The translations under genes were made by a program, and so were the position numbers. From contig CAJFVK010000001.1 of NCBI GenBank assembly GCA_904420435.1, positions 1 to 59,012 of the forward strand: 59,012 nt of DNA. Reading direction: 5' to 3'. Under the pieces are notes generated by a model. It was not told the DNA's origin, did no database searches, and saw only the letters and a program-made list of their open reading frames with translations. The stretch comes from an uncultured Oscillospiraceae bacterium (GTDB lineage Bacteria > Bacillota > Clostridia > Oscillospirales > Oscillospiraceae). Within the stretch, counting starts at the first letter, position 1, and the number at the start of each line of letters is the position of its first letter. Of this stretch, positions 13,482 to 59,012 are shown piece after piece.

Positions 13482-15107
13482 TCAGTCGTCGTCCATGTCG
13501 TACTCCAGAATGACGCCGGAGGAGCCGTCGATCTTGACCTCGTACTCCCTGCCGCCGGAGCGGAACTCCACCTCGTACTCCAGGCGGCCGTCGTCGTAGT
13601 CCCGCTCCACCTTCAGGCCGGTTATGTCGGAGAGGCTGAGGCCGGCGTAGCTGAGGGCGGCGTCCCTGGCACCCTCCGCGCCGATATCCCCGGAGGACGC
13701 GGCGGCGTGGGTCTTCGCCTCGCTCTTCAGGATGGCACCGGAGGAGCCGTCGACCTCGTAGTCGTACTCCGTATCCCCCGCCCAGAACTCGATCTCGTAC
13801 TCCAGGCGGCCGTCGTCATAGTCCCGCTTGGTGGAGGTGAACGCCGCCTGGTCCGCGGACACGCCGGCGTGGCTGAGGGCCGCGCTCTTGGCCGCCTCCA
13901 GGCCGATGTCCCCGGTGGACGCGCCGCTCTCCGCGCCGTCCTGCTCGTGGTCAAAGCCGATCACCTGGCCGGTGGCGGCGTCGATCTCGTACTCATACTC
14001 GGTGCTGCCCACCCAGAACTCCACCTCGTACTCCAGGCGGCCGTCCTCGTAGTCCCGCTTGGCCCAGATGCTGGACACCTGGTCCGCGGACACGCCGGCG
14101 TGGCTGAGGGCCGCGGCCTTGGCCGCCTCGGCGCCGATATCCGCCGGGCTGAGGACGCCGCTGTCCCCCGCCCCGGCCAGGATGCCGGCCTGTCCCCGGA
14201 GCACCTGGCCGGTGTAGGCGTCGACCGCATACTCAAACTCCCCGATGGAGAGCTTCAGCTCCACCTCGTAGTGGGGGGTCCTCTCGTCCAGCTCCGCGTC
14301 CACCTCGCAGACCACCGCGGTGGTGTCCCCCACCCCGGCGTACTCCCGGGCGATCCGCTCCGCCTCGCTCCGGCCGATGGGCAGCTGCCCGGCGCCGGCG
14401 GCGGCCATCTGGCTGAGCTCCTCCACGCTGAGGGCGGACAGGTCCGAAAAGCTCAGGCTGCTGTTCACCGCCCGGATGGCCTCGATCAGGGAGGCCTTGC
14501 CCACGGACACGTTGTTCTCCTGGGCCAAACTGTTCAGGGAGGCGTCCTGGGCCACGGTCTGGCTGAGCACCGACGCGCCGGACTGGGCGTTCTGCAGGGC
14601 CAGCCCCACCTCGCTGCTGAGACTCTCCTGGAGCCGGGCCGCCCGGCCGGCGTCCGCGTCCTCCACGGAGATCAGGATGGCCGAGGAGAGGCTCTCCAGA
14701 TAGCCGTGGCGCAGGAGGCTGCCCACAATGGCGTTCACCGCCACGTTCAGGTCCGTCCCCTCCAGGGGCATATCCCGGAGGATCTCCTCCGCCTCGGCAT
14801 TCAGGGCCCGGGCGGTGAGGACCTTTTCGCTCTGGCTCACCTCCAGCTGGATGCTGGGGTTCACATCCAGGGAAACCACCGAGGCCACGGCACTCTGCTG
14901 CCGGAGATAGAACCCCAGGATGCCGCCGCCCACCAGCAGCAGCGCCAGGCAGACGGCCACCGCCATCCGGGCAAAGGGCCGCTTCTTTCTCAGGGGGATC
15001 ACCACCCCGGACCGGTCGGCGCACCGGGAGAGGATGCTCTCCAGCTGGTCCGGCGCCGCGTGCTCCACGGCCAGGGCCAGCTTCTCTTCCAGTTGGCGGT
15101 CTGTCAC
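13482..15107 (-). CDS. Anti-sigma factor with one TM segment and four tandem PepSY domains
   Basis: GTG at 15107 follows GGAAGGAGGGGA and overlaps the sigma stop (GTGA). The TM segment is MAVAVCLALLLVGGGILGFYL. The C-terminal half has four repeats of the type AKxAALSHAGVSxxQ...RDYDDGRLEYEVEF...EYEYEIDxxxGxIL. The ORF-track N-terminal extension to 15425 overlaps the sigma gene and is rejected. Confidence 0.85.
   Translation of the reverse strand: MTDRQLEEKLALAVEHAAPDQLESILSRCADRSGVVIPLRKKRPFARMAVAVCLALLLVGGGILGFYLRQQSAVASVVSLDVNPSIQLEVSQSEKVLTARALNAEAEEILRDMPLEGTDLNVAVNAIVGSLLRHGYLESLSSAILISVEDADAGRAARLQESLSSEVGLALQNAQSGASVLSQTVAQDASLNSLAQENNVSVGKASLIEAIRAVNSSLSFSDLSALSVEELSQMAAAGAGQLPIGRSEAERIAREYAGVGDTTAVVCEVDAELDERTPHYEVELKLSIGEFEYAVDAYTGQVLRGQAGILAGAGDSGVLSPADIGAEAAKAAALSHAGVSADQVSSIWAKRDYEDGRLEYEVEFWVGSTEYEYEIDAATGQVIGFDHEQDGAESGASTGDIGLEAAKSAALSHAGVSADQAAFTSTKRDYDDGRLEYEIEFWAGDTEYDYEVDGSSGAILKSEAKTHAAASSGDIGAEGARDAALSYAGLSLSDITGLKVERDYDDGRLEYEVEFRSGGREYEVKIDGSSGVILEYDMDDD
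13485..14290 (-). repeat. Intragenic tandem repeats (about 222-240 nt period) encoding the PepSY modules
   Basis: The anchor GTACTCCAGGCGGCCGTC recurs at 13575, 13797 and 14028 on the plus strand. A degenerate fourth unit lies near 14268. Confidence 0.8.
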
Positions 15108-15679
15108 AGGGCGTCCCCTCCTTCCAGTTGTTTTCTCAGCTTCTTCAGCGCCCGGTGATACTTGGAGAGGACCGTGGGCAGGGGCAGCTCCAGAATCTCC
15201 GCGATCTCCCGGTGCTTCAGCCCGCTCACCGCGTGGAGGAGCACCGCCTGGCGCTCCTGGTCGTCCAGGGCCCCCAGGGCCGCCTGGAGCACCGCACGGT
15301 CCTCCGCCGTCACCGCCGGGGAGTCCACCGCCAGGCTCTCCCAGTCCTCCTGGGGCAGATCCTGCTCCCTGCCCCGCCGGCGCAGGCGCATCAGGGCAAA
15401 ATTTTTCGCGATGGTCAGCACCCACCCCATGGGCTTCCCCTGGGGGCGGTAGCCGGGGGCCGTGTCCCAGACGCGGACGTAGGTGTCCTGGGTCACATCC
15501 TCCGCGTCGTGTCCGTTTTTCAAGTAGGACAGGGCCAGGCCGTAGACAGAGCGCCTGGTCCTGTCATAGAACGCCGACAGCGCCTCCCGGTCCCCGGCGG
15601 CGATGTCCAGCAGCAGCTCCTCCAGCTGGTCCGGCGCCGCGGCGCCGGCGTCCGCCAGTGTGCCAAGTATCATCAGCAT
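15104..15679 (-). CDS. ECF-type RNA polymerase sigma-70 family factor
   Basis: 191 aa. Region 2 is DAEDVTQDTYVRVW and the region 4 HTH is LKHREIAEILELPLPTVLSKYHRALKKLR. SD is GGAGAGGGG. Confidence 0.92.
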   Translation of the reverse strand: MLMILGTLADAGAAAPDQLEELLLDIAAGDREALSAFYDRTRRSVYGLALSYLKNGHDAEDVTQDTYVRVWDTAPGYRPQGKPMGWVLTIAKNFALMRLRRRGREQDLPQEDWESLAVDSPAVTAEDRAVLQAALGALDDQERQAVLLHAVSGLKHREIAEILELPLPTVLSKYHRALKKLRKQLEGGDAL

Positions 15680-15768
15680 GGGATCCCCTCTCCTGTCACT
15701 TCTATAATGCTGCCGAGGCCCGTTTTATTGCGCGCAGCGGCAGAAAATTTTTCCGCCGGGCCCGGACC

Positions 15769-16320
15769 TCAGCCCCGGTCCGCCCGGTAGTCCCGGTAGA
15801 CCTCTCCCTCCAAAGTCTTCCACTGGAAGAGGCCGCCCTCCAGGGTCATGTAGCCCTTGGCGCTGCCCCCCTTGGGGATGGACACGGAGCCCGGGTTCAG
15901 ATAGACGTACCCCTGGTGCTCCGCGCAGGCGGGCACATGGGTGTGGCCGTGGAGCAGGACGCTCCAGGCGCCCATGGGGGGCAGGTGCTCCTCGTTCCAC
16001 AGGTGGCCGTGGGTGGCGTAGATCCGCACCCCGTCCGCCTCCACCAGGGCGTAGTCGGCCAGGATGGGGAACTGGAGGACCATCTGGTCCACCTCCGCGT
16101 CGCAGTTGCCCCGGACGGCCAGGATCCGGTCCCGGAGGCCGTTGAGCATCTCACAGACCCTGGGGCAGTCGTACTCCTCCGGCAGGGCGTTGCGGGGGCC
16201 GTGGTAGAGCAGGTCCCCCAGCAGGAGGATCTGATCCGGCGCCTCCCGCTCCACCGCCTCCATGAGCTTGCCGCAGCAGCGGGCGCTGCCGTGAATATCG
16301 GACGCAATCAGCAGTTTCAT
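15769..16320 (-). CDS. YfcE-type phosphodiesterase (MJ0936 metallophosphoesterase family)
   Basis: 183 aa. Motifs present: SDIHGS, GDLLYHGPRN, GNCD, GHTH. Confidence 0.88.
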   Translation of the reverse strand: MKLLIASDIHGSARCCGKLMEAVEREAPDQILLLGDLLYHGPRNALPEEYDCPRVCEMLNGLRDRILAVRGNCDAEVDQMVLQFPILADYALVEADGVRIYATHGHLWNEEHLPPMGAWSVLLHGHTHVPACAEHQGYVYLNPGSVSIPKGGSAKGYMTLEGGLFQWKTLEGEVYRDYRADRG

Positions 16321-16388
16321 ATAGGAATCTCCTTTTGTCGCTTTGAATTCAGGAAACAGTATACCATTTTTGCGGCAAAATTCAACTG

Positions 16389-16417
16389 TTGCCTTTTGTC
16401 GGAAACTTGCGTATACT
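16389..16417 (+). promoter_or_regulatory. Sigma-A-type promoter for the HAD hydrolase gene
   Basis: TTGCCT (16389-16394), 17 nt, TATACT (16412-16417). It is followed by an about 115-nt GC-rich leader. Confidence 0.5.
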
Positions 16418-16536
16418 GGCAGGCAGAGGGCGCGTGCCCCCCGGAGCCGGCGGCTGACAGGCGGCTTTGGAGGGGCGGTGCGCCCCGTGGAAAAAGAAGC
16501 GCGCCGGGCAGACGCCGGCGCGGGGGAGGAAGCCCT

Positions 16537-17202
16537 ATGGCATATGATACGATTCTCTTTGATCTGGACGGCACCCTGCTGGACACCCTGGAGGACTTAA
16601 AGGACGCGGTGAACCACGAGCTGGAGCGGGAGGGGGATCCCCCCCGGACCCTGGAGGAGGTCCGGGGCTTTGTGGGCAACGGCTTTCGGATGCTCATGAC
16701 CCGGGCCCTGCCCCAGGGCCTGAGCCAGGAGGAGATCGACCGGCGGACCGCCTCCATGGCCGCCTGGTACGGGGACCACAGCCAGGTACGCACCCGGCCC
16801 TACGATGGGATCCTGCCCCTGCTGGAGGCCCTGCGCCAGGCGGGCAGGGCCCTGGCGGTGGTGTCCAACAAGGGGGACGCGGTGGTGGGCCCCCTGTGCG
16901 AGCACTACTTCCCCGGCCTGCTGGACGCGGCGGTGGGGGAGGTGCCGGGATTGCGGCGAAAGCCCGATCCGGACACGGTGGAGCTGGCCCTCCGGCGGAT
17001 GAACCGGGGCAGGGAGGGGGCCGTGTACATCGGGGACTCGGACGTGGACATCGCCACCGCCCGGAACGCGGGGCTCCCCTGCATCTCCGTCACCTGGGGC
17101 TTTCGCAGCCGGGAGGAGCTGGAGCGCGCCGGGGCCTCCGTGCTGGTGGACACCCCGGAGCAGCTGCTGGCCCTGCTCACCGGCTCCGCCGGCGCGGATT
17201 GA
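16537..17202 (+). CDS. HAD-superfamily hydrolase (phosphoglycolate phosphatase-like)
   Basis: ATG at 16537 follows GGGGGAGGAAG. It has motif I FDLDGTLLDT, plus SNK and GDSDVD. The 760-aa ORF-track frame upstream is a GC-driven extension. Confidence 0.88.
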   Translation: MAYDTILFDLDGTLLDTLEDLKDAVNHELEREGDPPRTLEEVRGFVGNGFRMLMTRALPQGLSQEEIDRRTASMAAWYGDHSQVRTRPYDGILPLLEALRQAGRALAVVSNKGDAVVGPLCEHYFPGLLDAAVGEVPGLRRKPDPDTVELALRRMNRGREGAVYIGDSDVDIATARNAGLPCISVTWGFRSREELERAGASVLVDTPEQLLALLTGSAGAD

Positions 17203-20788: not shown

Positions 20789-21721
20789 CTATTTGTGGGG
20801 AATGCCCGGCAGCTGGGCCAGGTCGTAGGGGGTGGTCTGGTAGACAAAGTAGTTCAGCCAGTTGCTGTAGAGCAGGTTGGCGCAGGAGCGCCAGGTCACC
20901 CGGGGGGGCTGGGTGTCGTCGTCGTTGGGGTAGTAGTTCTTGGGCACCTCGATGGGCAGGCCCAGGTTCTTGTCCCGCAGGTACTCCTGCTCCAGGGTTC
21001 GGGCGTCGTACTCGCTGTGGCCGGTGATGAAGATCTGCCGGCCGCTCTCGGTGGACAGGGCGTAGATCCCCGCCTCCGGGGAGGTGGAGAGGATCTTCAG
21101 GGCCGGCACCTTCTCGATGTCCTCCCGCAGCACGGTGGTGTGCCGGGAGTGGGGCACCATGAACACGTCGTCAAAGCCCCGGAAGAGCATGTTGCTCCGC
21201 CGCTCCACAATGTGGGGGAAGATGCCGAAGAGCTTCTTCTCCAGGGGCACCTTCTGGATGCCGTAGTGGTAGTAGAGCCCCGCCTGGGCCCCCCAGCAGA
21301 TGTGGAAGGTGGAGTGGACGTGGGTCTTGCTCCACTCCATGATCTCGCACAGCTCCTCCCAGTACTCCACCTCCTCGAAGGGGAGATGCTCCACCGGCGC
21401 GCCGGTGATCACCAGCCCGTCGAAGTTCCGGTCCCTCACGTCGGCAAAGTGCTTGTAGAAGGCCAGCATGTGCTCCTGGGGGGTGTTCTTGGGCACGTGG
21501 CCGGCGGTGCAGATCAGCTCCAGCTCCACCTGGAGGGGGGTGTTGCTCAAAAGGCGGCTGAGCTGGGTCTCCGTGGCGATCTTGGTGGGCATCAGGTTCA
21601 AAAGCAAAATCTGCAGGGGGCGGATCTCCTGGGTGGTGGCCCGGGTTTCCGTCATGACGAAGATGTTCTCCTCCGTCAGCGTCTGAAAGGCGGGCAGCTC
21701 GTTTGGAATTTTAATGGGCAT
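20789..21721 (-). CDS. metA: Homoserine O-acyltransferase (MetA family; acetyl- or succinyl-transferring)
   Basis: 310 aa. It has [11 protein letters not shown] and [13 protein letters not shown], and is MetA-like over its full length. Confidence 0.93.
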
Positions 21722-21745
21722 CGGCTCGCTCCCTCCCCGCCGGCC

Positions 21746-23023
21746 TTACGCCTGCTCCAGGGCCTGGCTCAGGTCGGCGATCAGGTCCTCCTTGCTCTCC
21801 AGGCCCACGCTCAGGCGCACCAGGTCCGCGCTGACGCCGGCGGCCACCAGCTCCTCGTCGTTCATCTGCCGGTGGGTGGTGCTGGCCGGGTGGAGGCAGC
21901 AGGTCCGGGCGTCGGCCACGTGGGTGGCGATGGCCCCCAGACGGAGGGCCTTCATGAAGCGGCCGGCGGCCTCCCGGCCCCCCTTCACGCCGAAGCTCAC
22001 CACGCCGCAGGAGCCCTTGGGCAGGTACCTCTGGGCCAGAGCGTGGTAGGGATCCCCCTCCAGGCCGCTGTAGCGGACCCAGGCGATCTTGGGGTGGCTC
22101 TGGAGGAACCGGGCGATGGCCAGGGCGTTCTCACAGTGGCGCTCCATGCGCACGTGGAGGCTCTCCAGGCCCAGATTCAGGTAGAAGGCGCTCTGGGGGG
22201 AGAGGGTGGAGCCGAAGTCCCGCATGAGCTGGGCCGTGGCCTTGGTGATATAGGCGGCCTTGCCGAACTTGGCGGCGTAGGTGATGCCGTGGTAGCTGTC
22301 GTCGGGGGTGGTGAGGCCGGGGAACTTGTCCGCGTGGGCCATCCAGTCGAAGTTGCCGCTGTCCACGATGGCGCCGCCGATGGCGCTGGCGTGGCCGTCC
22401 ATGTACTTGGTGGTGGAGTGGGTCACAATGTCCGCCCCCCACTCAAAGGGCCGGCACAGGACGGGGGTGGCGAAGGTGTTGTCCACAATGAGAGGCACGC
22501 CGTGGGCGTGGGCGGCCCTGGCAAACTTCTCGATGTCCAGCACCGTCAGGGCGGGGTTTGCGATGGTCTCTCCAAACACGGCCTTGGTGTTGGGGCGGAA
22601 GGCGGCGTCCAGCTCCTCCTCCGTGCAGTCCGGGGAGACGAAGGTGAACTCCACGCCCATCTTCTTCATGGTCACGGAGAAGAGGTTATAGGTGCCCCCG
22701 TAGATGCTGTTGGAGGCCACCACGTGGTCCCCGCAGGAGGCGATGTTGAACACGGCGAAGAAGTTGGCCGCCTGGCCGGAGGAGGTGAGCATGGCGGCGG
22801 CGCCCCCCTCCAGGGCGCAGATCTTGGCGGCCACATGGTCGCAGGTGGGGTTCTGGAGGCGGCTGTAGAAGTAGCCCTCGGCCTCCAGGTCGAAGAGCTT
22901 GCCCATGTCCTCGCTGGTGTCGTACTTGAAGGTGGTGGACTGGATGATGGGGACCTGCCGGGGTTCCCCATTTCCGGGGTGGTAGCCCCCCTGGACGCAG
23001 GTGGTTTCGATGCGCTGGCTCAT
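21746..23023 (-). CDS. metY: O-acetylhomoserine aminocarboxypropyltransferase (sulfhydrylase)
   Basis: ATG at 23023 follows AAAGGAG. The N-terminus is TTCVQGGYHPGNGEPRQVPIIQSTTFKY and the PLP-lysine block is HSTTKYMDGH. The ORF-track extension to 23176 is rejected. Confidence 0.92.
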   Translation of the reverse strand: MSQRIETTCVQGGYHPGNGEPRQVPIIQSTTFKYDTSEDMGKLFDLEAEGYFYSRLQNPTCDHVAAKICALEGGAAAMLTSSGQAANFFAVFNIASCGDHVVASNSIYGGTYNLFSVTMKKMGVEFTFVSPDCTEEELDAAFRPNTKAVFGETIANPALTVLDIEKFARAAHAHGVPLIVDNTFATPVLCRPFEWGADIVTHSTTKYMDGHASAIGGAIVDSGNFDWMAHADKFPGLTTPDDSYHGITYAAKFGKAAYITKATAQLMRDFGSTLSPQSAFYLNLGLESLHVRMERHCENALAIARFLQSHPKIAWVRYSGLEGDPYHALAQRYLPKGSCGVVSFGVKGGREAAGRFMKALRLGAIATHVADARTCCLHPASTTHRQMNDEELVAAGVSADLVRLSVGLESKEDLIADLSQALEQA

Positions 23024-23062
23024 ACTTGATCGGCTCCTTTTCTGTGATCTCTTTGGAAACTT

Positions 23063-23097
23063 AAAAAAATAAAAGGGACCGCCCGGTGAGCGATCCC
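23063..23097 (-). terminator. Leader (attenuator) terminator in front of metY
   Basis: On the minus strand: GGGAUCGC-UCACCGG-GCGGUCCC, then UUUUAUUUUUUU. It ends about 40 nt before the metY ATG. Confidence 0.8.
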
Positions 23098-23130
23098 AAT
23101 GTACCCTTTGCTCCGGCCCCTGAAACGGGC

Positions 23131-23226
23131 TCAGCGGGAAGAGGAAGCGGCACAATGGGAACGACAAGACATGCACATGCCGAACATGTACATCTCCATC
23201 TGATCCAGCATCATGCTGCGGGCCAT
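23131..23226 (-). CDS. Met/Cys-rich leader peptide (31 aa) of the metY-metA operon
   Basis: ATG at 23226 sits 7 nt after GAGAGGAAAGGGGA. Translation is MARSMMLDQMEMYMFGMCMSCRSHCAASSSR, with 8 Met in the first 19 codons and 3 Cys. The stop is at 23131-23133. Confidence 0.6.
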   Translation of the reverse strand: MARSMMLDQMEMYMFGMCMSCRSHCAASSSR

Positions 23227-38586: not shown

Positions 38587-38673
38587 GCCGGTGTGGTGGA
38601 ATTGGTAGACACAAGGGACTTAAAATCCCTCGGTAGCGATACCGTACCGGTTCGAGCCCGGTCACCGGCACCA
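38587..38673 (+). tRNA. tRNA-Leu (anticodon UAA), class II long variable arm, CCA encoded
   Basis: The acceptor GCCGGTG pairs with CACCGGC. The anticodon loop is CT-TAA-AA within AGGGA/TCCCT, the variable arm is CGGTAGCGATACCGT, and the T-arm is ACCGG-TTCGAGC-CCGGT. Confidence 0.93.
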
Positions 38674-38696
38674 TGGGATTTTAAGAAACCACATAT

Positions 38697-38772
38697 CGCG
38701 GCGTAGAGCAGTTGGTAGCTTGTCGGGCTCATAACCCGGAGGTCGCAGGTTCGAGTCCTGCCGCCGCAACCA
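38697..38772 (+). tRNA. Initiator tRNA-Met (anticodon CAU), CCA encoded
   Basis: The acceptor CGCGGCG/CGCCGCA gives a C1:A72 mismatch. The anticodon stem has three consecutive G:C pairs (GGG/CCC) flanking CT-CAT-AA. Both are bacterial initiator hallmarks. Confidence 0.88.
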
Positions 38773-49787: not shown

Positions 49788-51452
49788 TCAATAGTACATG
49801 TTCATGTTCTGGGTGGTGTTCTGGAATACGGTGTCGCCCTCGCTGACGCCGCTGCGGATCTCAATATTATATGTATCGTTGATCCCTGTTTCCACCGGCA
49901 CGGCGTAGTAGCCCTCGGCGGGCACGCCCATGGCGCTGCCGTCGATGTCGATGGCGTTGTCCGGCCGGGCGTCCGTCTTCAGGAACACCACGCTGATGCT
50001 CTCGCCGGTTTCACTGTTGGGGTCGGTGACGTACTTGACGCACTGGATGGGCAGCACCAGGCACCCGTCGCTCTGGCTGGCCACCAGGCTATAGGTGACG
50101 GAGCTGTTGGGGTAGATGCCGCTGCCGGTCTCCGCGGCCATGGAGTTGTCCACGGAGATGGTGGCCGGGTAGAAGACGGCGCCGTTGTTGTTCTCCGCGT
50201 TGAGGCTGATGCTCTCCACAACGCCCGTGTAGGGGGTGCCCCACTGGTTGATGTCCACCATCATGCCCACCTTCACGTAGGACAGGTTCCGCTCGTCCAC
50301 CTGGGCGGTGATGGTGATGACGGAGGTGTCGGCGATGGTGATCACCGCGGTGTTGGCGTCCACCTCCTGGCCCGGGGAGATGGCAAGGCCCGACACAGTG
50401 CCGGAGATGGGCGCCACCGCCTCCAGGTTCGCCAGGTTCTTCTCCGCCTTCTCCAGGTCCTCCTGGGCGGTCTTCACGTCCTCCTCGGCGTTGTAGATGT
50501 CCGCCTCGTTGTCCTCCCCGTCGATCTGCATGAGCACATCCCCGGCGGACACGGACAGGTAGTCCAGCAGGCTGTTGCTGATCACGTCGCCGCTGGCCTT
50601 GACCACCACGTCCGCCGTGCGGCTGTACTTCAGCTCCCCCTGCTCATAGGGGTAGATGGCCTGGCCGCCGGAGGTGATGGAGGCGGAGGCCTTCATGCCC
50701 TCGGTGAGGGCGCCCTCGTTGGGAACCGAGATCTCCACCATGAAGAGCCGGCTGCCCTCGGCGGAGATCCGCTCCACCATGTTGACCCGCTCCACCGTGC
50801 CGGTGACCTGCCCCATGACCGCCGGGATGGAAACGGAAACGCTCTGCCCCTGGCGGATATCGTTTTCATAGGCGTAGCTGTAGTACTGCTCCAGGGTCAG
50901 GGTGTGGTCGTCCACCAGCTTGGCGATGGTGGTGCCGCTGGAGATGGGATCCCCCGGCTCGAAGCGGGGGCTGTCCCCCAGGAGGATCTTCCCGGAGAAG
51001 GGGGCCGTGACGGTCAGGTTGTTGGCCGCCTCATAGAGGTCGTCCAGGGCCTGCTGCTTGGCCTTCAGGGCGTCCCGGGCGTTGACCACCGCGGCCTGGG
51101 CGCCGGGGCTGTCGATGGAAAACAGCTGCTGGCCGGCCTCCACCGTCTGTCCCTCGGTGACGTACACGTCCAGCACGGTGCCCGAGGTGGTGATGGTGAT
51201 GGTCTCCTGGCTCTTGGCCTTGGCGGTGCCGGAGCCCTCCACCTTGCTGGTGATGGAGCCCAGCTGCACCATGGCGTCATTGATCGTAACGCTCCCGTCG
51301 TCGGCAGTCATCAGCTTGACCATGCCGAAGACAATGGCACCCACCACCACAAGGGCAATGACGCTGAGGATGATCCGCTTGCGGAGCTTGGGATTCTTCT
51401 TTTTCTTGGGCGCCTGTACCTCCGTGGCGGGCGGGGTGACTGTTGCATTCAT
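49788..51452 (-). CDS. Membrane-fusion (HlyD/MacA/YknX-like) periplasmic adaptor protein
   Basis: ATG at 51452 follows GGAGGAAAGGAAGG. It has an N-terminal TM anchor, lipoyl-like hairpin segments (VYVTEGQTVEAGQQLFSID, APISGTVSGLAISPGQEV) and a coiled-coil. At 554 aa it is long for the family. Confidence 0.85.
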   Translation of the reverse strand: MNATVTPPATEVQAPKKKKNPKLRKRIILSVIALVVVGAIVFGMVKLMTADDGSVTINDAMVQLGSITSKVEGSGTAKAKSQETITITTSGTVLDVYVTEGQTVEAGQQLFSIDSPGAQAAVVNARDALKAKQQALDDLYEAANNLTVTAPFSGKILLGDSPRFEPGDPISSGTTIAKLVDDHTLTLEQYYSYAYENDIRQGQSVSVSIPAVMGQVTGTVERVNMVERISAEGSRLFMVEISVPNEGALTEGMKASASITSGGQAIYPYEQGELKYSRTADVVVKASGDVISNSLLDYLSVSAGDVLMQIDGEDNEADIYNAEEDVKTAQEDLEKAEKNLANLEAVAPISGTVSGLAISPGQEVDANTAVITIADTSVITITAQVDERNLSYVKVGMMVDINQWGTPYTGVVESISLNAENNNGAVFYPATISVDNSMAAETGSGIYPNSSVTYSLVASQSDGCLVLPIQCVKYVTDPNSETGESISVVFLKTDARPDNAIDIDGSAMGVPAEGYYAVPVETGINDTYNIEIRSGVSEGDTVFQNTTQNMNMYY

Positions 51453-51505
51453 GGTTTCTTTCCTTCCTTTCCTCCGGTCCGGAAAATTCGCGTACTGTAC
51501 TGCTG

Positions 51506-51534
51506 ATAGTAATACAGTTGGCAATGCTTGTCAA
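51506..51534 (-). promoter_or_regulatory. Promoter of the MFP-ABC-FtsX-SLH operon
   Basis: On the minus strand: TTGACA (51534-51529), 17 nt, TACTAT (51511-51506). Confidence 0.6.
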
Positions 51535-51544
51535 CCTGAAAACA

Positions 51545-51562
51545 GTTACAGTTAGGTTACAG
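51545..51562. promoter_or_regulatory. Direct repeat GTTACAG-N4-GTTACAG (11-bp period) abutting the -35 of the efflux/SLH operon
   Basis: GTTACAG occurs at 51545-51551 and 51556-51562, 10 nt upstream of the -35 on the minus-strand promoter. This geometry is typical of response-regulator activator sites. Confidence 0.4.
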
Positions 51563-51764
51563 CTTTCCGGCGCTGCCGGGCGGGCGCGGCCCAGGGCCGG
51601 ACAGGAGCCATTGCCATACTAATTTTATAGACGACAGAGCGGGGCAAATGTTCCCTCTCCGCCTAAAAAAATTCTGGTCCGCGGGGGGCGGGAGCTTTTC
51701 GGCTGGTTTTTCATTTTTTTGACATGGAACAGAAAATTTTTTTAAAAATTCCCCCTTCTGCTCC

Positions 51765-51793
51765 TTGCAAAACGACACAATTTGGAGTATAGT
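51765..51793 (+). promoter_or_regulatory. Promoter of the His-rich / cooT / metF / acs operon
   Basis: TTGCAA (51765-51770), 17 nt, TATAGT (51788-51793). Confidence 0.65.
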
Positions 51794-51838
51794 GTATACG
51801 GTTAAAATTATGTCAATTCATAGATTGGAGTGACCACT

Positions 51839-52123
51839 GTGGAACACAGCCATGAACATACCCATCCCCACAGCCACGACGGCGTGGAGCACACCCATCC
51901 CCACACCCATGAGGGCCATTCCCACGGGGACGTCCAGGGGGAGGACAAGACGGCGGCCCTGCTGCAGTACATGCTGGACCACAACGTCCACCACTGCGGC
52001 GAGCTCAAGGAGATGGCCGGCGGCCTCTCCGGCGAGGCGCAGCACCAGCTGCTCCACGCGGTGGAGAGCTTCGAGGAGGCCAACGGCCATCTGGCAAAGG
52101 CCATCGAGGAACTGAAAAAGTAA
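51839..52123 (+). CDS. Histidine-rich small protein (putative metal-binding or nickel-handling protein)
   Basis: GTG at 51839 sits 8 nt after GGAG (the frame also opens at GTG 51830). The N-terminus is EHSHEHTHPHSHDGVEHTHPHTHEGHSHGD, with 12 His in about 30 residues, followed by a helical C-terminal half with further His/Cys (HNVHHC). Confidence 0.7.
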   Translation: MEHSHEHTHPHSHDGVEHTHPHTHEGHSHGDVQGEDKTAALLQYMLDHNVHHCGELKEMAGGLSGEAQHQLLHAVESFEEANGHLAKAIEELKK

Positions 52124-52136
52124 GGAGCGATTTTCC

Positions 52137-52325
52137 ATGTGTCTTTCTACGGTTTATAAAGGAAGCAAGTCTGACGACAACGTCTGCGCCAAGTATGTGG
52201 CGAAGATCGACGTGGACGGCGACACCCTCACCTTTACCGACGTGCTGGGCGAGGTGACGAAGGTGGAGGGCCGCCTGGTCAGCGCGGACCTGACCGCCGG
52301 CGTGGTGGTCTTCGACGCCGCCTGA
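52137..52325 (+). CDS. cooT: CooT-family nickel-binding protein
   Basis: 62 aa. It has the N-terminal Met-Cys (Cys2) and an all-beta pattern like R. rubrum CooT. SD is AAGGAG. Confidence 0.75.
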   Translation: MCLSTVYKGSKSDDNVCAKYVAKIDVDGDTLTFTDVLGEVTKVEGRLVSADLTAGVVVFDAA

Positions 52326-52326
52326 G

Positions 52327-52548
52327 ATGAGAGCGTACGAACTGTGCTGCGAGATCTTCAACAGCTGCAGCAACAACCAGATGCGGGACGTGGATTTCCA
52401 GGAGGTGGAGGTGGAGGACACCGACGCCTACGTCCGGAATCTGGAGCCCCGGGCCGTTATTGAGAAGGAGGTCCTCTCCGACGGCGCGGTGATTTACCAT
52501 ACGGATACCGCCGGACTGTGCAAGCGGTATTCCTTCACCCCGATCTGA
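52327..52548 (+). CDS. Hypothetical small protein (73 aa)
   Basis: ATG lies 1 nt after the cooT stop, which suggests translational coupling. The N-terminus is Cys-rich (ELCCEIFNSCSNN). No family recognised. Confidence 0.55.
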   Translation: MRAYELCCEIFNSCSNNQMRDVDFQEVEVEDTDAYVRNLEPRAVIEKEVLSDGAVIYHTDTAGLCKRYSFTPI

Positions 52549-52765
52549 CGCCGGCGCCGCCGGACGCCGGAGCGGGGCCGCCGCGCCCGGGCGCCCAGCG
52601 CCGGCCTTCGCGGCGGACGGTCGAGCCAGGCTGCCAGGGGGCCCGGGGAGGGCACGGCGGAGCGTTCCGCCGGCGTCCCGCCGGCCCGCCTGGAAATGGA
52701 TATGCTGGCTCCGGTATCGGCCGGAGTCCGCGGCAGAGAAGCGAAACAAACAAATGGAGGTTTTT

Positions 52766-53689
52766 ATGAAAGTTTCCGAGATTTTTGAGGAGCGGGCAAC
52801 ATTCTCCTTTGAGGTGTTCCCGCCCAAGACCGACGCCGGCATGGAGAAGCTGTGCGGCAAGGGCGGCGTGCTGGAGCAGCTGTACACCATGCACCCGGAC
52901 TACATCTCCTGCACCTACGGCGCCGGCGGCACCAACGTGGGCAAGAACCTGGAGGTCCTCCAGAAGATCAAGGCCGACGGCAAGTGCACCCCGGTCACCC
53001 ACTTCACCTGCATCGGCAACACCAAGGAGGGCATCAAGGAGCAGCTCCAGACCTACCTGGACAACGGCATCGACCACATCCTGGCCCTGCGGGGCGACCT
53101 GCCCTTCGGCTGGACAGGCACCAACGGCGACCTGCACTACGCCACGGAGCTGGTGAAGTTCATCCGCAAGGAGTTTGACGACAAGTTCACCATCGCCGTG
53201 GCCGGCTCCCCCGAGGGCCATGTCCAGTGCCGCAGCCTGGAGTCCGACATCTCCTTCCTCAAGCAGAAGCAGGACAACGGCGCCGACTACATCATCACCC
53301 AGCTGTGCTGGGATATGGACCAGTTCCGCTACTGGCTGGACGCCATCCGGGCCGCCGGCATCTGGCTGCCTGTGGACGTGGGCATCATGCCCATCACCAC
53401 CATCTCCGGCACCCTGACCAACGCCCTGAGCCGCAACGCCTGCGTCATGGACCGCAAGCTCTGCGAGATCATCTCCAAGTACTGGCTGTTCCCCAACCCC
53501 TACGCCCCCGAGGACGCCATGGCGGATCAGAAGAAGGCCGATTTCCGCAAGGCCGGCCTGGACTACACCATCGACCTGATCGACCAGTACCGGGCCTGCG
53601 GCATCGACGGTATCCACCTCTATGCCCTGAACAAGTACGAGGATGTGGCTTACATCGTCGAGAACTCCGGCATCATCGACCTGGTCTGA
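52766..53689 (+). CDS. metF: Methylenetetrahydrofolate reductase
   Basis: ATG at 52766 follows ATGGAGG. It has FSFEVFPPKT, LRGD and DYIITQLCWD, typical of MetF. Confidence 0.92.
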   Translation: MKVSEIFEERATFSFEVFPPKTDAGMEKLCGKGGVLEQLYTMHPDYISCTYGAGGTNVGKNLEVLQKIKADGKCTPVTHFTCIGNTKEGIKEQLQTYLDNGIDHILALRGDLPFGWTGTNGDLHYATELVKFIRKEFDDKFTIAVAGSPEGHVQCRSLESDISFLKQKQDNGADYIITQLCWDMDQFRYWLDAIRAAGIWLPVDVGIMPITTISGTLTNALSRNACVMDRKLCEIISKYWLFPNPYAPEDAMADQKKADFRKAGLDYTIDLIDQYRACGIDGIHLYALNKYEDVAYIVENSGIIDLV

Positions 53690-53758
53690 CGCAGGACCGC
53701 TCCGGGGCCTCTCCGGCCGGCGGAGCGGATCATCCCTTTGGAAGGAGCCGCAAGCACT

Positions 53759-54529
53759 ATGACACAAACCATCGCTTTCGCCGGCAAGGGCGGGGTCGGC
53801 AAGACCACCATCTGCGGGATGCTGATCCAGTACCTGTGCCGCAAGAATAAGGGCGCCGTCCTGGCTGTGGATGCGGACGCCAACTCCAACCTCAACGAGG
53901 TGCTGGGGGTGGACGTGGAGATGACTCTGGGCGACATCCGCGAGAACATCGCCCGGGCGGACATCACCGATCCCAGCCCCATCCCCGCCGGCATGACCAA
54001 GGCCGACTACGCGGACATGATGTTCGGCAACGCCCTCATCGAGGGGGACGACTTCGACATGCTGGTCATGGGCCGCACCCAGGGCAAGGGCTGCTACTGC
54101 TACGTCAACGGCATCCTCTCCGCCCAGGTGGACAAGTACGCCAAGAACTACCGCTATGTGGTGGTGGACAACGAGGCGGGCCTGGAGCACATCAGCCGGG
54201 GCATCCTGCCCAAGGTGGACATGATCCTCCTGGTCAGCGACTGCTCCCGCCGGGGCATCCAGGCGGTGGGCCGCATCGCTGAGATGATCGAGGAGCTGAA
54301 GCTGGGCGTGAAGGACGTGAAGCTCATCGTCAACCGCGCCCCCGGCGGCCAGCTCAACGACGGCGTCCGGGAGGAGATCGAGAAGCACGGCCTGGACCTG
54401 CTGGGCGTCGTGCCCCAGGACGAAACCGTCTACCAGTATGACGCCGAGGGCAAGCCCAGCGTGGACGTGCCGGAGGACGCGCCCATCAAGCAGGCGGTCC
54501 ACGGCCTCTTTGACCAGCTTCCCCTGTAA
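53759..54529 (+). CDS. cooC: CooC/AcsF-type nickel-insertion ATPase
   Basis: It has the deviant Walker A GKGGVGKTT and the CxC nickel motif GKGCYCYVN. It is a MinD/ParA-like fold of 256 aa. Confidence 0.9.
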   Translation: MTQTIAFAGKGGVGKTTICGMLIQYLCRKNKGAVLAVDADANSNLNEVLGVDVEMTLGDIRENIARADITDPSPIPAGMTKADYADMMFGNALIEGDDFDMLVMGRTQGKGCYCYVNGILSAQVDKYAKNYRYVVVDNEAGLEHISRGILPKVDMILLVSDCSRRGIQAVGRIAEMIEELKLGVKDVKLIVNRAPGGQLNDGVREEIEKHGLDLLGVVPQDETVYQYDAEGKPSVDVPEDAPIKQAVHGLFDQLPL

Positions 54530-54613
54530 GAACCGCGTGTATCTGTGAGAGCGCACCCAACTATGTTTTCTATTAATTTTCAATAGACAAATTTTTGAAG
54601 GGAGTAAACCACT

Positions 54614-55552
54614 ATGCCGTTTGCAAAGAAACCCCAGGTATTCGGCGCGTCCATCAACGCCCTGACGCTGGGCACCGGCGACAAGGCCATCACCCTGGGC
54701 GGTCAGAATGTGTACAATCTCTACACCTTCGACGCCCCCATCGCCAACCGCCCCAAGATCGGTATCGATGTGTCCGACGATCCCCAGCAGCCCTCCCCGG
54801 GCCTGGCCGCCTTCTATGAGGGCTGCACCACCCTGGCTGACCGGGCCAAGAAGGCCGCGTCCCTGGAGGATGTGGACTTTGTCTGCATCCGCTTCGATCT
54901 GGCCGACCCCAACGGCGCCGACAAGTCCATCGAGGACTGCGTGGCCGACGCCAAGGCTGTGGCCGAGGTAGTCGACAAGCCCATCGTGGTGGCCGGCTGC
55001 AAGAACACCAGCAAGGATACCGAGCTCTTCGGCAAGGTGTCCGAGGCCCTGCAGGGCAAGAACATCCTGGTCCTCTCCGCCCGCGAGGAGGACTACAAGG
55101 GCGTGGCCGCCTCCGCCGTCATGGCCTATGGCCAGAAGGTGGGCGCCGAGTCCGCCGTGGACATCAACCTGGCCAAGCAGCTCAACGTCCTCATCACCCA
55201 GATGGGCGTTGACGGCCACAACATCGCCATGAACGTGGGCAGCGCTGCCGCCGGCTACGGCTTTGAGTACGTCGTTTCCACCCTGGAGCGCGTCAAGGCC
55301 GCCGCCCTGGGCCAGAGCGACACCACCCTCCAGATGCCGATCATCACCCCCGTGGGCAACGAAACCTGGGCTGTGAAGGAGTCCACCGCTCCCGAGTCCG
55401 ACAACCCCGAGTGGGGCGATCAGGACGAGCGCGGCATCGACATGGAAGTCGAAACCGCCGCCGCCTGCCTGGCTTACGGCAGCGACGCCGTCATCCTGCG
55501 GCATCCTGAATCCATTAAGACCGTTGCGCAGCTGATTGCTGCTTTGATGTAA
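54614..55552 (+). CDS. acsD: Corrinoid iron-sulfur protein small subunit (AcsD/CdhD)
   Basis: 312 aa. It resembles the CFeSP delta/small subunit (TIM-barrel) throughout, for example VVAGCKN and AVILRHPES. Confidence 0.9.
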   Translation: MPFAKKPQVFGASINALTLGTGDKAITLGGQNVYNLYTFDAPIANRPKIGIDVSDDPQQPSPGLAAFYEGCTTLADRAKKAASLEDVDFVCIRFDLADPNGADKSIEDCVADAKAVAEVVDKPIVVAGCKNTSKDTELFGKVSEALQGKNILVLSAREEDYKGVAASAVMAYGQKVGAESAVDINLAKQLNVLITQMGVDGHNIAMNVGSAAAGYGFEYVVSTLERVKAAALGQSDTTLQMPIITPVGNETWAVKESTAPESDNPEWGDQDERGIDMEVETAAACLAYGSDAVILRHPESIKTVAQLIAALM

Positions 55553-55566
55553 GGAGGGTGTGAACC

Positions 55567-57858
55567 ATGGCACTGAAAGGTCTTGACATCTTTAAGCTGA
55601 CCCCGAAAACCAACTGTAAGGACTGCGGCAGCCCCACCTGCATGGCGTTCGCCATGAAGGTCGCCCAGGGCGCCGTTCCCATTGAGAAGTGCCCCCACAT
55701 GTCCGCTGAGGCGCTGTCCACTCTGTCCGAGGCCACCGCGCCCCCGATGAAGAGCTACAAGGTGGGCGAGCTGAGCCTGGGCGGCGAGACCGTCCTGAGC
55801 CGCCACGAGAAGACCTTCGTTTCCAAGACCCTGTATGCCGTGAGCGTCTGCGACTGCATGGACGAGGCCAAGCAGGACGAGGTCATCGCCTCCATCCCCA
55901 AGGTGGACTATGAGCGCATCAGCGAGCGGATGTATGTGGAGATGGTCTACGTCAACCACAGCGCCGACAAGAGCGCCGACGACTATGTGGCTCTGATCAA
56001 CAAGGTCAAGGGCCTGGGCCGTCCCCTGGTGCTGGGCTGCACCGACGTGGCCGTGGCCAAGGCCGCTGTGGCCGCCGCTGCCGGCTGCGACTTCATCCTC
56101 AACGGCGCCGACGAGAGCAACTACGCCGACATGAGCGCCATCGCCACCGAGGCCAAGGTGCTCCTGGGCGTCCGTGCCGCCTCCCTGGAGGCTCTCCACG
56201 ACACCGTGGAGAAGCTGGAGGCCGCCGGCAACAAGAACCTGATCCTGGATGTGGGCACCGCCTCCATCAAGGACGCCTACGCCAACGCCGTGCAGATCCG
56301 CCGGGCCGCTCTGAAGGACGGCGACCGGACCTTCGGCTATCCCTCCATCGTCAACGTGGCTGCCATCGCCGGCGGCAACGCCCACATGGAGGCCGCCCTG
56401 CTGAGCCTGTTCACCTGCAAGTACGGCTCCATCGTGGTCTGCTCCGAGATGACCTACGCCAAGGCCCTGCCTCTGTACGGCCTGCGCCAGAACATCTTCA
56501 CCGACCCCCAGAAGCCCATGAAGGTGACCCCGGGTATCTACCCCATCAACGGCGCCGACGAGAACAGCCCCTGCTGCCTGACCGTGGACTTCGCCCTGAC
56601 CTACTTCCTGGTGTCCGGCGAGCTGGAGCGCTCCAAGTGCCCGGTGAACCTGCTGATCTCCGACGCCTCCGGTATGTCCGTGCTGACCGCCTGGGCCGCC
56701 GGCAAGTTCTCCAGCTCCTCCGTGAAGAAGTTCATGGACGAGTTCGACATCGCGGGTAAGATCAAGAGCCGCGCCCTGATCATCCCCGGCAAGGTGGCCG
56801 TGATGAAGGGCGAGATCCAGGATAAGCTGCCCGAGTGGGACGTGATCGTGGCGCCCAACGAGGCGGTGCAGCTGGTGAAGTACCTGAAGGACGAGGAGTG
56901 GAAGAAGAGCCTGACCGGCAAGAGCGCCGGCGCTGGCGCCGCCGCCTCCGCTGCCGCCGCGACTGAGCCCGCCCCGGCCCCCAAGAAGGTCATCCCCGCG
57001 CCTCCCATCGTCGTCACCGGCCCCTACAAGCTGGAGGACCAGGTGGTTACTTACAAGCACCGGGATGCTTCCAGCAACCGCTTCGTGGTCATCGGCGAGC
57101 GGATCCACTGCATCTCCCCCGCCATCCGCAAGGCTATGGACAGCTACGACGAGGGCCCCATCCTGAAGCGTGCCGCCGAGCAGATCGCCGCCGGCGCCAC
57201 CTACCTGGATGTGAACATCGGGCCTGCTGAGAGCAACGGCCCCGAGCTGATGCAGTGGGCGGTTCAGCTGCTGCAGCAGAACTTCAACAACGTGCCTCTG
57301 GCCCTGGATACCGCCAACAAGGCCGCTATCGAGGCCGGCATCAAGGTCTACAACCGTGAGAACGGCAAGCCCATCGTGAACTCCGCCGACGCCGGCAGCC
57401 GGATCGACAACATCAACCTGGCCGCCGCCAACGACGCCATCGTCATCGCCCTGTGCTCCGCCGACGGTATCGCCAAGGACAACGAGGAGCGCATGATGCA
57501 CTGCCACAACATGCTGGAGCGCGGCCTTGCCCTGGGCATGGAGTCCGACGACCTGTGGTTCGACCCCCTGTTCCTGGTGGTCAAGGGTATGCAGGACAAG
57601 CAGATGGACGTGCTGAACGCCATCAAGGCCTTCTCCGACGAGGGCCTGAAGAGCACCGGCGGCCTCTCCAACAACTCCAACGGCATGCCCAAGCACATCC
57701 GTCCCATCATGGACAGCGCCCTGGTGGCCATGTGCATGATGCAGGGCCTGACCTCCGCCATCGTCAACCCCTGCGACCAGCGCCTGATGGAGACCATCAA
57801 GAGCTGCGACGTGTTCAAGAACAACATCCTGTACGCCGATTCCTACCTGGACATCTAA
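55567..57858 (+). CDS. acsC-acsE: Fusion protein: corrinoid iron-sulfur protein large subunit (AcsC/CdhE) + methyl-THF:corrinoid methyltransferase (AcsE)
   Basis: 763 aa. Residues 1 to about 445 are AcsC-like: [4Fe-4S] motif CKDCGSPTCMAFAMK...C, TIM barrel, and a C-terminal corrinoid domain ending IIPGKVAVMKGEIQD. An Ala/Pro-rich linker (about nt 56905-57080) follows. Residues about 506-763 are AcsE-like (VIGERI, LDVNIGP, LALDT, GLSNNS). Confidence 0.9.
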   Translation: MALKGLDIFKLTPKTNCKDCGSPTCMAFAMKVAQGAVPIEKCPHMSAEALSTLSEATAPPMKSYKVGELSLGGETVLSRHEKTFVSKTLYAVSVCDCMDEAKQDEVIASIPKVDYERISERMYVEMVYVNHSADKSADDYVALINKVKGLGRPLVLGCTDVAVAKAAVAAAAGCDFILNGADESNYADMSAIATEAKVLLGVRAASLEALHDTVEKLEAAGNKNLILDVGTASIKDAYANAVQIRRAALKDGDRTFGYPSIVNVAAIAGGNAHMEAALLSLFTCKYGSIVVCSEMTYAKALPLYGLRQNIFTDPQKPMKVTPGIYPINGADENSPCCLTVDFALTYFLVSGELERSKCPVNLLISDASGMSVLTAWAAGKFSSSSVKKFMDEFDIAGKIKSRALIIPGKVAVMKGEIQDKLPEWDVIVAPNEAVQLVKYLKDEEWKKSLTGKSAGAGAAASAAAATEPAPAPKKVIPAPPIVVTGPYKLEDQVVTYKHRDASSNRFVVIGERIHCISPAIRKAMDSYDEGPILKRAAEQIAAGATYLDVNIGPAESNGPELMQWAVQLLQQNFNNVPLALDTANKAAIEAGIKVYNRENGKPIVNSADAGSRIDNINLAAANDAIVIALCSADGIAKDNEERMMHCHNMLERGLALGMESDDLWFDPLFLVVKGMQDKQMDVLNAIKAFSDEGLKSTGGLSNNSNGMPKHIRPIMDSALVAMCMMQGLTSAIVNPCDQRLMETIKSCDVFKNNILYADSYLDI

Positions 57859-57887
57859 GTCGGGATCTCACCGTTCTGACAAACAAG

Positions 57888-57921
57888 AATCCCGGAGCTG
57901 CTGTGCAGCTCCGGGATTTTT
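57888..57921 (+). terminator. Terminator of the acs operon
   Basis: AATCCCGGAGCTGC-TGT-GCAGCTCCGGGATT, then TTT. Confidence 0.88.
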
Positions 57922-58122
57922 ATACCATTGAAACAGGCTGCGCCTTCCCGCCGGAAAGATTGGGGCCCGCGGCAGCGCACGAACCGGCCGACAAAGGCGG
58001 CTGGTTCCCCCGTTTGCACGCCGGGAAGTGGTTTCGTCCACGCCGCAGCGGCTGTGCCGCGAGGAAGGCGCTGTTTTACCGCCGCCTGGGGCGCGAACGC
58101 TGCGAAACTTGTTCGGCAGATG

Positions 58123-58167
58123 GAAAAGGTCCCCGGAAACCGCACAGCGGTTTCCGGGGACCTTTTC
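58123..58167. terminator. 21-bp-stem hairpin downstream of the homocysteine methyltransferase gene
   Basis: GAAAAGGTCCCCGGAAACCGC-ACA-GCGGTTTCCGGGGACCTTTTC. Confidence 0.65.
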
Positions 58168-58235
58168 TCAAATGCGCCCTGCAAATGGCGGCCCGGCGGA
58201 ACCCCCCGGCGCCGCCGGCGGAAGCGGCGGCGCTA

Positions 58236-59012
58236 CTACTTGCCCACCTTCTGGCAGAAGTAGCCGGACAGGAAGTCCCCGCTGCCCGGCCGCTCCTGGC
58301 CGGCCTGCCGTGTCAGCCGGCTGACCCACTCCATGATCAGCCGCATGTGCCGGTCGTCCGTGCCGCAGCAGCCGCCGTAGAACTTCAGGGGGAAGGCCTG
58401 GTGGAGCCGCTGGAGGGCGGAGAGGAGCTCCGTGGGGGAGCTGGGGTGGAGGCTGGCCCCGGCGGCAATCTGGGACGGGCTCAGCCGGGAGGTGTTGGCG
58501 TAGGTGCCCCGCAGGCGGGCGCGGACGGTTTCCGTCTGGTTGAAGGGCTGCTCCAGCCCCTCCCACAGGTTGTCCGGGTGGATGCAGCTGCACTGGTAGA
58601 AGAGGGGCGGCCGGTCCGGCACCGTGGCGTCGATCCGGGTGATGGCGTCGTGGATGGTTGTGCCGTCCAGCAGATGGCCGGTGTGGTCGCACATGAGGTT
58701 GATCCAGTAGGGGATGCCCGTTTCCGACAGGGCTGCCGCCATGCCCCGGGCCTCGTTGACCTCCGGCATGATCCCGGCCACCAGCACGTCCGCCCCGGTT
58801 TTGGCGAAGGCCTGGGCCTGATGGCGGTGAAACTCCGCCGCCTCCTCGAAGGGAAGGGCCTCCCCGGGGTTGTAGGCGTCCCCCTTGCAGCCCAGGAGCG
58901 CCCCGATGTAGAGGGGCTGGCTCCGCCCCTTGGCCAGCTGCCGCAGGAAGTCCATGTTGTCCTCCAGCACCGGGCGGCCGGCGAAGGGGGAGGCGGCGAT
59001 GCTCTCAAAGGT
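58236..59012 (-). CDS. Homocysteine S-methyltransferase-domain protein (N-terminus outside the window)
   Basis: The frame is open to the window edge. It has the C-terminal zinc motif YGGCCGT plus an upstream Cys (QCSCIHP), and blocks FAKTGADVLVAGIMP typical of the Hcy-binding domain of MetH/MmuM/BHMT. Confidence 0.85.
   Translation of the reverse strand, partial: TFESIAASPFAGRPVLEDNMDFLRQLAKGRSQPLYIGALLGCKGDAYNPGEALPFEEAAEFHRHQAQAFAKTGADVLVAGIMPEVNEARGMAAALSETGIPYWINLMCDHTGHLLDGTTIHDAITRIDATVPDRPPLFYQCSCIHPDNLWEGLEQPFNQTETVRARLRGTYANTSRLSPSQIAAGASLHPSSPTELLSALQRLHQAFPLKFYGGCCGTDDRHMRLIMEWVSRLTRQAGQERPGSGDFLSGYFCQKVGK

Follow-up and report, generated by a model that had tools for sequence, protein, structure and literature searches.

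The window analysed here, a stretch of 59,012 nucleotides (nt) from an uncultured Oscillospiraceae bacterium (contig CAJFVK010000001.1, positions 1 to 59,012), carries near its right end an operon of seven plus-strand genes for one-carbon, corrinoid and nickel-handling proteins. A preliminary description of this DNA had made its headline of the lack of any gene for acetyl-CoA synthase (ACS) or carbon monoxide dehydrogenase (CODH), which is correct within the window but as a headline turned out to be an effect of the window's edge, because the ACS gene acsB is present on a contig 99.5% identical to its last 7.2 kb. The operon is very probably the upstream part, a transcription unit in itself, of a normal Wood-Ljungdahl (reductive acetyl-CoA) cluster of a high-GC gut Oscillospiraceae bacterium from a Pelethomonas-like clade, with acsB about 470 nt past the window end and CODH at a second locus. 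The features of the locus, numbered from the first base of the window, are as follows.

51765 to 51793, plus strand: promoter-like site, TTGCAA-17-TATAGT, sigma-70-like, with a 9/12 consensus match, in an AT-rich divergent intergenic region.
51830 to 52123, plus strand: gene for a His-rich protein of 97 amino acids (aa), with a variable N-terminal tail rich in His, Asp and Glu and a conserved helical C-terminal part.
52137 to 52325, plus strand: cooT, nickel-binding accessory protein of 62 aa (PF10133, 6.8e-14, 52.4 bits, cut-off 27).
52327 to 52548, plus strand: orf73, conserved small protein of 73 aa between cooT and metF, with no family match.
52766 to 53689, plus strand: metF, methylenetetrahydrofolate reductase of 307 aa (PF02219, 1.9e-65); the open reading frame (ORF) opens at 52754, and the likely ATG at 52766 stands behind GGAGG.
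53759 to 54529, plus strand: cooC/acsF-type nickel-insertion ATPase of 256 aa; 53759 is the likely start in an ORF open from 53738.
54614 to 55552, plus strand: acsD, small subunit of the corrinoid iron-sulfur protein (CFeSP) (NF040759 WLP_AcsD, 458.6 bits, cut-off 430).
55567 to 57858, plus strand: acsC::acsE fusion, 763 aa (PF04060, 1.1e-14; PF03599; PF00809; NF003195 and NF040758).
57885 to 57921, plus strand: intrinsic terminator hairpin with 17-nt arms followed by UUUUUAU (-30.1 kcal/mol, z = -6.6).
58123 to 58167, both strands: second hairpin, with perfect 21-nt arms and A and T runs alongside (-48 kcal/mol on either strand, z = -8.8).
58236 to 59012, minus strand: homocysteine S-methyltransferase-family gene, 3' part (PF02574, 4.5e-23, matched at profile positions 76-282 alone).

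The G+C content of the window is 65%, and true genes can be recognised by a very high G+C content at the third codon position (GC3), which in the seven ORFs between 51830 and 57858 reaches 0.83-0.93 against 0.32-0.42 at the second position (GC2), a strong coding signal. Together with the Pfam and NCBIfam matches and the similarity of the ATPase to CooC1, this signal upheld all seven gene calls of the preliminary description, while the promoter and terminator that it placed around the seven genes correspond to a consensus match and to a strong hairpin, respectively, a single promoter for all seven being no more than possible. The promoter-like site is a consensus match only, four sigma-70-like sites being observed in the scanned region against 1.2 expected. 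The second hairpin would most likely act as a bidirectional terminator for the convergent methyltransferase gene. About 300 nt of repeat DNA had been described behind the operon, but this stretch is not repetitive and contains the two terminator inverted repeats and one weak match of 82% over 72 nt. The weak match, which is inverted, links the intergenic segments 57972-58104 and 4385-4515 (the 72 nt at 4444-4515, plus a 16-nt exact word) and may represent a small dispersed intergenic element. Within the operon, orf73 and metF are separated by 205 nt (217 nt up to the likely ATG) of very GC-rich DNA, which folds no better than shuffled sequences (z = -0.9), and Rfam searches, made at gathering scores over the whole window and at E <= 1 over 51400-59012, revealed neither a riboswitch nor any other RNA family in the leader of the operon or in its spacers.

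The DNA beyond the window end could be followed on a second contig. The minus-strand ORF at 58236-59012 contains no stop codon up to the last base, and the S-methyltransferase gene is therefore truncated by the window edge. Contig L160 (ENA ERZ24773310, 23.7 kb) is the longest of 21 contigs that share an identical AcsD; it aligns with window positions 51854-59012 at 99.46% identity over 7160 nt, the alignment ending exactly on the last base of the window, and with the preceding 6.9 kb at 96%, and therefore derives from a conspecific strain. After acsC::acsE, L160 carries the S-methyltransferase gene on the minus strand, acsB, RACo (645 aa), DUF3786, an ECF transporter S component and folC. The S-methyltransferase gene, of the stand-alone type, is complete there (336 aa, 13214-14224, minus strand) and encodes a GGCCG zinc motif. 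On L160 the last base of the window falls at position 13990, and acsB (14459-16588) starts 469 nt further on. The encoded protein of 709 aa contains the three domains PF18537, PF03598 and PF19436 of a full-length ACS, matches the ACS of C. autoethanogenum (6ytt_A) at 3.6e-287, and retains the Cys-rich A-cluster segments CQSFAPSHVCVVTPERLGLCGA and SCGCFE. The preliminary description had the cluster stop after acsE, which is true of the transcription unit and of the window and fails for the DNA beyond. As a promoter-like site, TATACA-17-TAGAAT with the TG of an extended -10 element, precedes acsB on L160, in agreement with the terminator after acsE, acsB probably forms a transcription unit of its own; in the close relative L001, the 181-nt spacer between acsE and acsB likewise holds a hairpin and a similar promoter-like stretch. 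Within the window, a Pfam scan of 48 proteins gave no match to the ACS, CODH, Fhs, FolD or MetV families, and tblastn searches with AcsB, RACo, DUF3786 and Fhs gave none either. The genes fhs, fchA and folD are absent from the window, and the 20.5 kb of L160 do not reach them.

A comparison of the locus with relatives, as had been proposed earlier, placed this arrangement in context. At least 589 relatives of AcsC::AcsE occur in a species-representative genome collection, and the best 80 loci, which were kept, come almost entirely from metagenome-assembled genomes (MAGs) of gut Oscillospiraceae, with identities of 83-94% in Pelethomonas-like and about 69% in Faecousia-like genomes. The closest relatives in GTDB (L001 and L086, AcsC::AcsE 93-94% identical) both have acsB downstream. 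The unit of His-rich protein gene, cooT, orf73, metF, cooC, acsD and acsC::acsE is syntenic in relatives; the seven ORFs of the window are intact and 60-95% identical to their counterparts there, and the seven-gene operon is conserved in more than 100 loci. Downstream of acsC::acsE, acsB is found within 1 kb in 62 loci and at 1-5 kb in 14, while 19 loci have no acsB within 5 kb or more. The usual continuation is acsB, RACo and DUF3786, then fhs-fchA-folD, the last three genes being present downstream of DUF3786 in the close relatives L081-L083, L086, L088, L091 and L097.

The junction between acsE and acsB is a recurrent site of insertion and breakage. The S-methyltransferase insert occurs there only in the window species, none of the 368 other loci having it; a PadR and DUF2812-like insert occupies the junction in L003 (2343-5562), L004 and L083; and in the L005-L016 group unrelated genes follow acsC::acsE and acsB is not there. 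After such breakage the relocated acsB stands alone in varied contexts, about 73 kb away on the same contig in one case (L006/L094) and elsewhere in the same assembly in others (L005/L100, L009/L111, L012/L102, L014/L109, L002/L118 and L021/L084). In several Faecousia-like loci (L053, L056, L058, L059, L066-L068 and L077), RACo directly follows acsC::acsE with no acsB between. Because the assemblies of the L005-L016 group hold acsB at other loci, a split cluster is the normal state of the window's clade and not a sign of loss.

As for CODH, its gene cooS was found neither in the window nor in any Oscillospiraceae cluster locus examined. In Lachnospiraceae-type loci (L048, L070, L074, L076, L135, L142 and L146), a cooS-cooC2-acsB module lies between cooC and acsD. 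A genome scan with the CooS of Blautia returned only Lachnospiraceae matches and was uninformative on Oscillospiraceae. CooS was also searched for by GC-rich back-translation of the conserved motif LHMGSCVD, which yielded at least 120 stretches, nearly all containing a real CooS gene, absence from this list being no evidence. Among the matches listed, cooS-cooC2-acsB modules are present in Oscillospiraceae MAGs (L256, L315, L319, L340, L360 (Faecousia sp.) and L263 (CANDEH010000135.1)), and the assembly CANDEH01, which holds L263, also holds locus L131, with a cluster-type AcsB that shares 90% identity with that of L160. The AcsB encoded beside cooS shares just 45-57% identity (45-62% over all the loci compared) with the one encoded after acsC::acsE, and given this divergence these bacteria possess two ACS paralogues, as do some Lachnospiraceae; both occur in Oscillospiraceae assemblies, and they stand side by side in some Lachnospiraceae loci (L135-L147). 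One previous study noted that its novel MAGs of Oscillospiraceae and Lachnospiraceae, like the reference acetogens, have acsB in one or two copies (PMC11773752), and Oscillospirales MAGs with acsB have been regarded as putative acetogens, mostly without formate dehydrogenase (PMC12449052, PMC11773752). Three explanations had been offered for the missing nickel enzymes, and the first of them, that they are encoded elsewhere in a split cluster, is favoured by acsB past the window end on L160, by acsB after acsC::acsE in most relatives and by cooS-cooC-acsB on other contigs. An acsB/cooS cluster beyond the window or elsewhere had been named as the finding that would make the pathway an ordinary one, and here acsB was located on the conspecific contig, while cooS was reached only indirectly, through the modules in related Oscillospiraceae assemblies.

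The starts adopted for MetF (52766) and CooC (53759) are those chosen by gene callers on conspecific contigs, where MetF is 307 aa long. The earlier remark that no metV-like gene accompanies metF proved accurate, no MetV-type domain being matched by Pfam among the operon or other scanned window proteins, and the MetF of the window seems to stand alone, without MetV, as it does in the Blautia locus L076. Both CFeSP subunits, AcsC with its Fe-S motif and corrinoid domain and AcsD, are present in the window together with AcsE. AcsD is an identical protein on the 21 public contigs, which come from several samples. In the fusion protein, residues 1-443 correspond to the CFeSP large subunit (NF003195, 501 bits, cut-off 306), with an N-terminal 4-Cys Fe-S motif formed by C17, C20, C25 and C42, and residues 504-763 to the methyl-tetrahydrofolate (methyl-THF):CFeSP methyltransferase AcsE (NF040758, 468.5 bits, cut-off 370), the two parts being joined by an Ala/Pro-rich linker at about residues 444-503. 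Of 110 related loci, 96 have acsC::acsE as one continuous ORF, and the 14 with separate genes are Lachnospiraceae-type loci together with L123 and L150. Since acsC and acsE of Blautia L076 are separate genes in the same frame, 189 nt apart, the comparison suggests that a lost stop codon gave rise to the fusion. A limited literature search turned up no earlier account of AcsC and AcsE fused in a bacterium, so the novelty of the fusion is not proven.

Among the nickel-handling genes, the one for the CooC-type ATPase encodes a CbiA/MinD-type P-loop protein that, among proteins of solved structure, best matches CooC1 of C. hydrogenoformans (3kje, 3.2e-17, residues 12-240, full length), and its translation contains both the deviant Walker A P-loop GKGGVGKT and the CYC (CXC) metal-binding motif expected of CooC/AcsF. 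The N-terminus of CooT, MCLSTVY with its Cys2, is invariant in 39 homologues, and Cys2 we take to be the nickel ligand, as is known for CooT of R. rubrum; a phmmer search with CooT against PDB sequences gave no match. The His-rich protein has a conserved YML.HN.HH..EL motif in its C-terminal part and occupies the same cluster position in at least 26 loci, that of Blautia L076 among them. It matched no Pfam family in the copy used here, nor any NCBIfam family or PDB sequence, while its counterpart on L160, a near-identical length variant of 105 aa, carries the precomputed label DUF8180 (PF26551). On contigs with identical AcsD the protein is 94, 97, 105 or 109 aa long (L160 6784-7101; L161 6103-6387; L162 816-1145), a length polymorphism due to His-rich repeat units gained or lost. 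Membership of CooJ was considered and rejected, as neither PDB nor Pfam searches showed similarity to CooJ and the His tail is N-terminal, not C-terminal. The DUF8180 protein is presumed to bind or store nickel and may, by analogy, act like CooJ without being a member of that family.

The small gene orf73 is present in at least 60 loci, and Oscillospiraceae clusters place it between cooT and metF. None of the 174 homologues of its product is named or carries a Pfam domain, and the product itself matched nothing in Pfam, NCBIfam or PDB sequences; C14 and an NNQMRD motif are invariant, and the AF2 model (pLDDT 92) consists of five strands and one helix. A roadblock/longin-like fold was not accepted, the best Foldseek hit against PDB having only an E value of 0.04 and a TM score of about 0.5.

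From the families to which the proteins belong and from what is generally known of the pathway, MetF would reduce methylene-THF to 5-methyl-THF, and the AcsE domain would move the methyl group onto the Co(I) of the corrinoid held by AcsC and AcsD, the fusion thereby tethering methyl donor and acceptor. The resulting methyl-Co(III)-CFeSP would methylate the proximal nickel of the ACS A-cluster (Ni-Ni-[4Fe-4S]), whereupon ACS would condense the methyl group with CoA and with CO from CODH, and RACo would repair oxidised Co(II). The ATPase CooC, CooT and the His-rich DUF8180 protein could supply nickel to ACS and perhaps to CODH, and nickel chaperones are expected in the operon for that reason; their retention, which the preliminary description had treated as a paradox, is no longer one with ACS next door. 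The ACS itself would be expressed from the promoter-like site of acsB, behind the inserted convergent S-methyltransferase gene and ahead of RACo, DUF3786, the ECF S component and folC, and CODH would be encoded at a second locus as a cooS-cooC-acsB module with the paralogous acsB, as in related Oscillospiraceae. The identities of the genes, the conservation of the cluster and the place of acsB on L160 are shown directly; from these we infer that the genome of the window continues as L160 does and, from the related assemblies, that it contains CODH.

Some observations weigh against this assignment to a complete, split pathway. The window stops inside the methyltransferase gene and acsB was not seen in its own genome; L160 represents a conspecific strain from another assembly, and for the AcsC::AcsE and MetF of the window no identical sequence is on record. 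The strong terminator after acsE makes co-transcription of acsB with the operon unlikely. As well, the link between CODH and this clade consists of one shared MAG bin, in which contamination is possible, and of unlinked Oscillospiraceae MAGs.

One might ask whether the CFeSP/methyltransferase module has no need of ACS and instead shuttles methyl groups on its corrinoid to a different acceptor, e.g. to homocysteine via the adjacent S-methyltransferase in the manner of a split, MetH-like methionine synthase. The PF02574 gene lies directly downstream, the operon has its own terminator, and a metA gene and a metY-like gene are found in the same window (20789-23176). However, the S-methyltransferase gene is convergent rather than co-oriented and sits at the junction in this species alone, whereas the operon recurs in more than 100 loci, and for this reason a functional tie between the two was rejected as the principal interpretation; moreover, acsB with its A-cluster motifs follows the S-methyltransferase gene on L160, and the nickel chaperones would serve no purpose in such a shuttle. 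This repurposing, the second of the explanations offered earlier, is left without support and highly improbable. The third, a decaying pathway whose acsB and/or CODH this strain no longer has, with the other genes left behind as relics, could appeal to the 19 related loci lacking a nearby acsB, to the few Faecousia-like loci with RACo after acsC::acsE and no acsB between, and to a window that ends before acsB could appear. It is at odds with seven intact, well-conserved ORFs of strong codon bias, with an AcsD 100% identical on contigs from several samples, with the intact acsB-RACo-DUF3786 on L160, and with at least seven related genomes with broken clusters that still hold acsB elsewhere in the same assembly, and we regard decay as unsupported and the least probable reading of all.

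A different possibility concerns CODH alone. The bacterium might possess ACS, CFeSP and methyltransferase without a CODH of its own, using external CO or running ACS in the cleavage or exchange direction, which would agree with the absence of cooS in or beside the cluster in every Oscillospiraceae locus examined. Against this stand the cooS-cooC-acsB modules in several Oscillospiraceae MAGs, including Faecousia and CANDEH01, as well as the N-terminal domain kept by the cluster-type AcsB, which matches Pfam CODH_A_N (PF18537) and which we take, from established ACS structures, to be the part that docks onto CODH; such a variant is accordingly improbable. A bolder proposal is that Oscillospiraceae and some Lachnospiraceae run two distinct ACS enzymes, AcsB1, encoded with cooS and forming the classical CODH/ACS, and AcsB2, encoded after the fused AcsC::AcsE and 45-62% identical to AcsB1. 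The latter would be a CODH-independent ACS tightly coupled to the tethered CFeSP-methyltransferase, e.g. for acetyl-CoA cleavage, methyl exchange or the use of free CO, with the window operon as its methyl-donor half and orf73 and the DUF8180 protein as its accessory factors. We consider this division of labour unlikely, though less so than the other alternatives, and retain the upstream unit of a normal Wood-Ljungdahl cluster as the preferred explanation.

The remaining genes of the window are of housekeeping type, including those for V-type ATPase subunits, MurT/GatD, MnmG, the metA/metY-like pair, MetRS, SSB, SpoVT and ABC exporters. The pair of metA (homoserine O-succinyltransferase family) and metY-like gene (Cys/Met PLP enzyme) lies beside a stretch of lower G+C content (58%, 22-24 kb), and no S-box riboswitch was detected in this region at Rfam gathering scores. 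Two tRNA genes are located at 38587-38769.

A corrinoid operon with nickel chaperones but without a nickel enzyme would, if true, have meant a new use of CFeSP and its methyltransferase, and the evidence says otherwise. The locus instead offers a worked example of gut Oscillospiraceae whose Wood-Ljungdahl genes are spread over two or more loci and in which insertions repeatedly break the acsE-acsB junction. This matters for the annotation of acetogenesis in gut metagenomes, where views based on marker genes or single contigs can misjudge such genomes as 'incomplete'. Both the conserved 73-aa product of orf73 and the DUF8180 protein with its His-rich tail accompany the cluster. The AcsC::AcsE fusion, orf73 and the length polymorphism of the His-rich tail are not obviously described before, and all three are minor.

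Among known systems, the Blautia cluster (L076) is alike in containing, in the same order, the His-rich protein gene, cooT, metF, cooC, acsD, acsC and acsE, followed by RACo, DUF3786, fhs, fchA and folD, its proteins being 61-68% identical to those of the window. It differs in that cooS-cooC2-acsB is placed between cooC and acsD and that acsC and acsE are separate genes, whereas the cluster of the window has neither cooS nor acsB between cooC and acsD, a fused acsC::acsE, an additional orf73 before metF, and acsB after acsE. Gut Oscillospiraceae of the Pelethomonas-, Avoscillospira- and Faecousia-like kinds, known from MAGs, have clusters with the identical unit DUF8180-cooT-orf73-metF-cooC-acsD-acsC::acsE and then acsB-RACo-DUF3786, and their AcsC::AcsE is 69-94% identical to that of the window. 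The window species differs from these by the convergent S-methyltransferase insert before acsB, where others have the PadR/DUF2812 insert or a displaced acsB. In the incomplete Wood-Ljungdahl pathway of the Dehalococcoides type, ACS and CFeSP are kept while methyltransferase, CODH and MetF are absent. It provides a precedent for a truly partial pathway, but the gene set retained is the opposite of that in the window, whose pathway appears not to be partial once the DNA past the window end is considered. The operon is thus an ordinary member of the known Wood-Ljungdahl clusters, from an order, the Oscillospirales, whose members with acsB are already known as putative acetogens.

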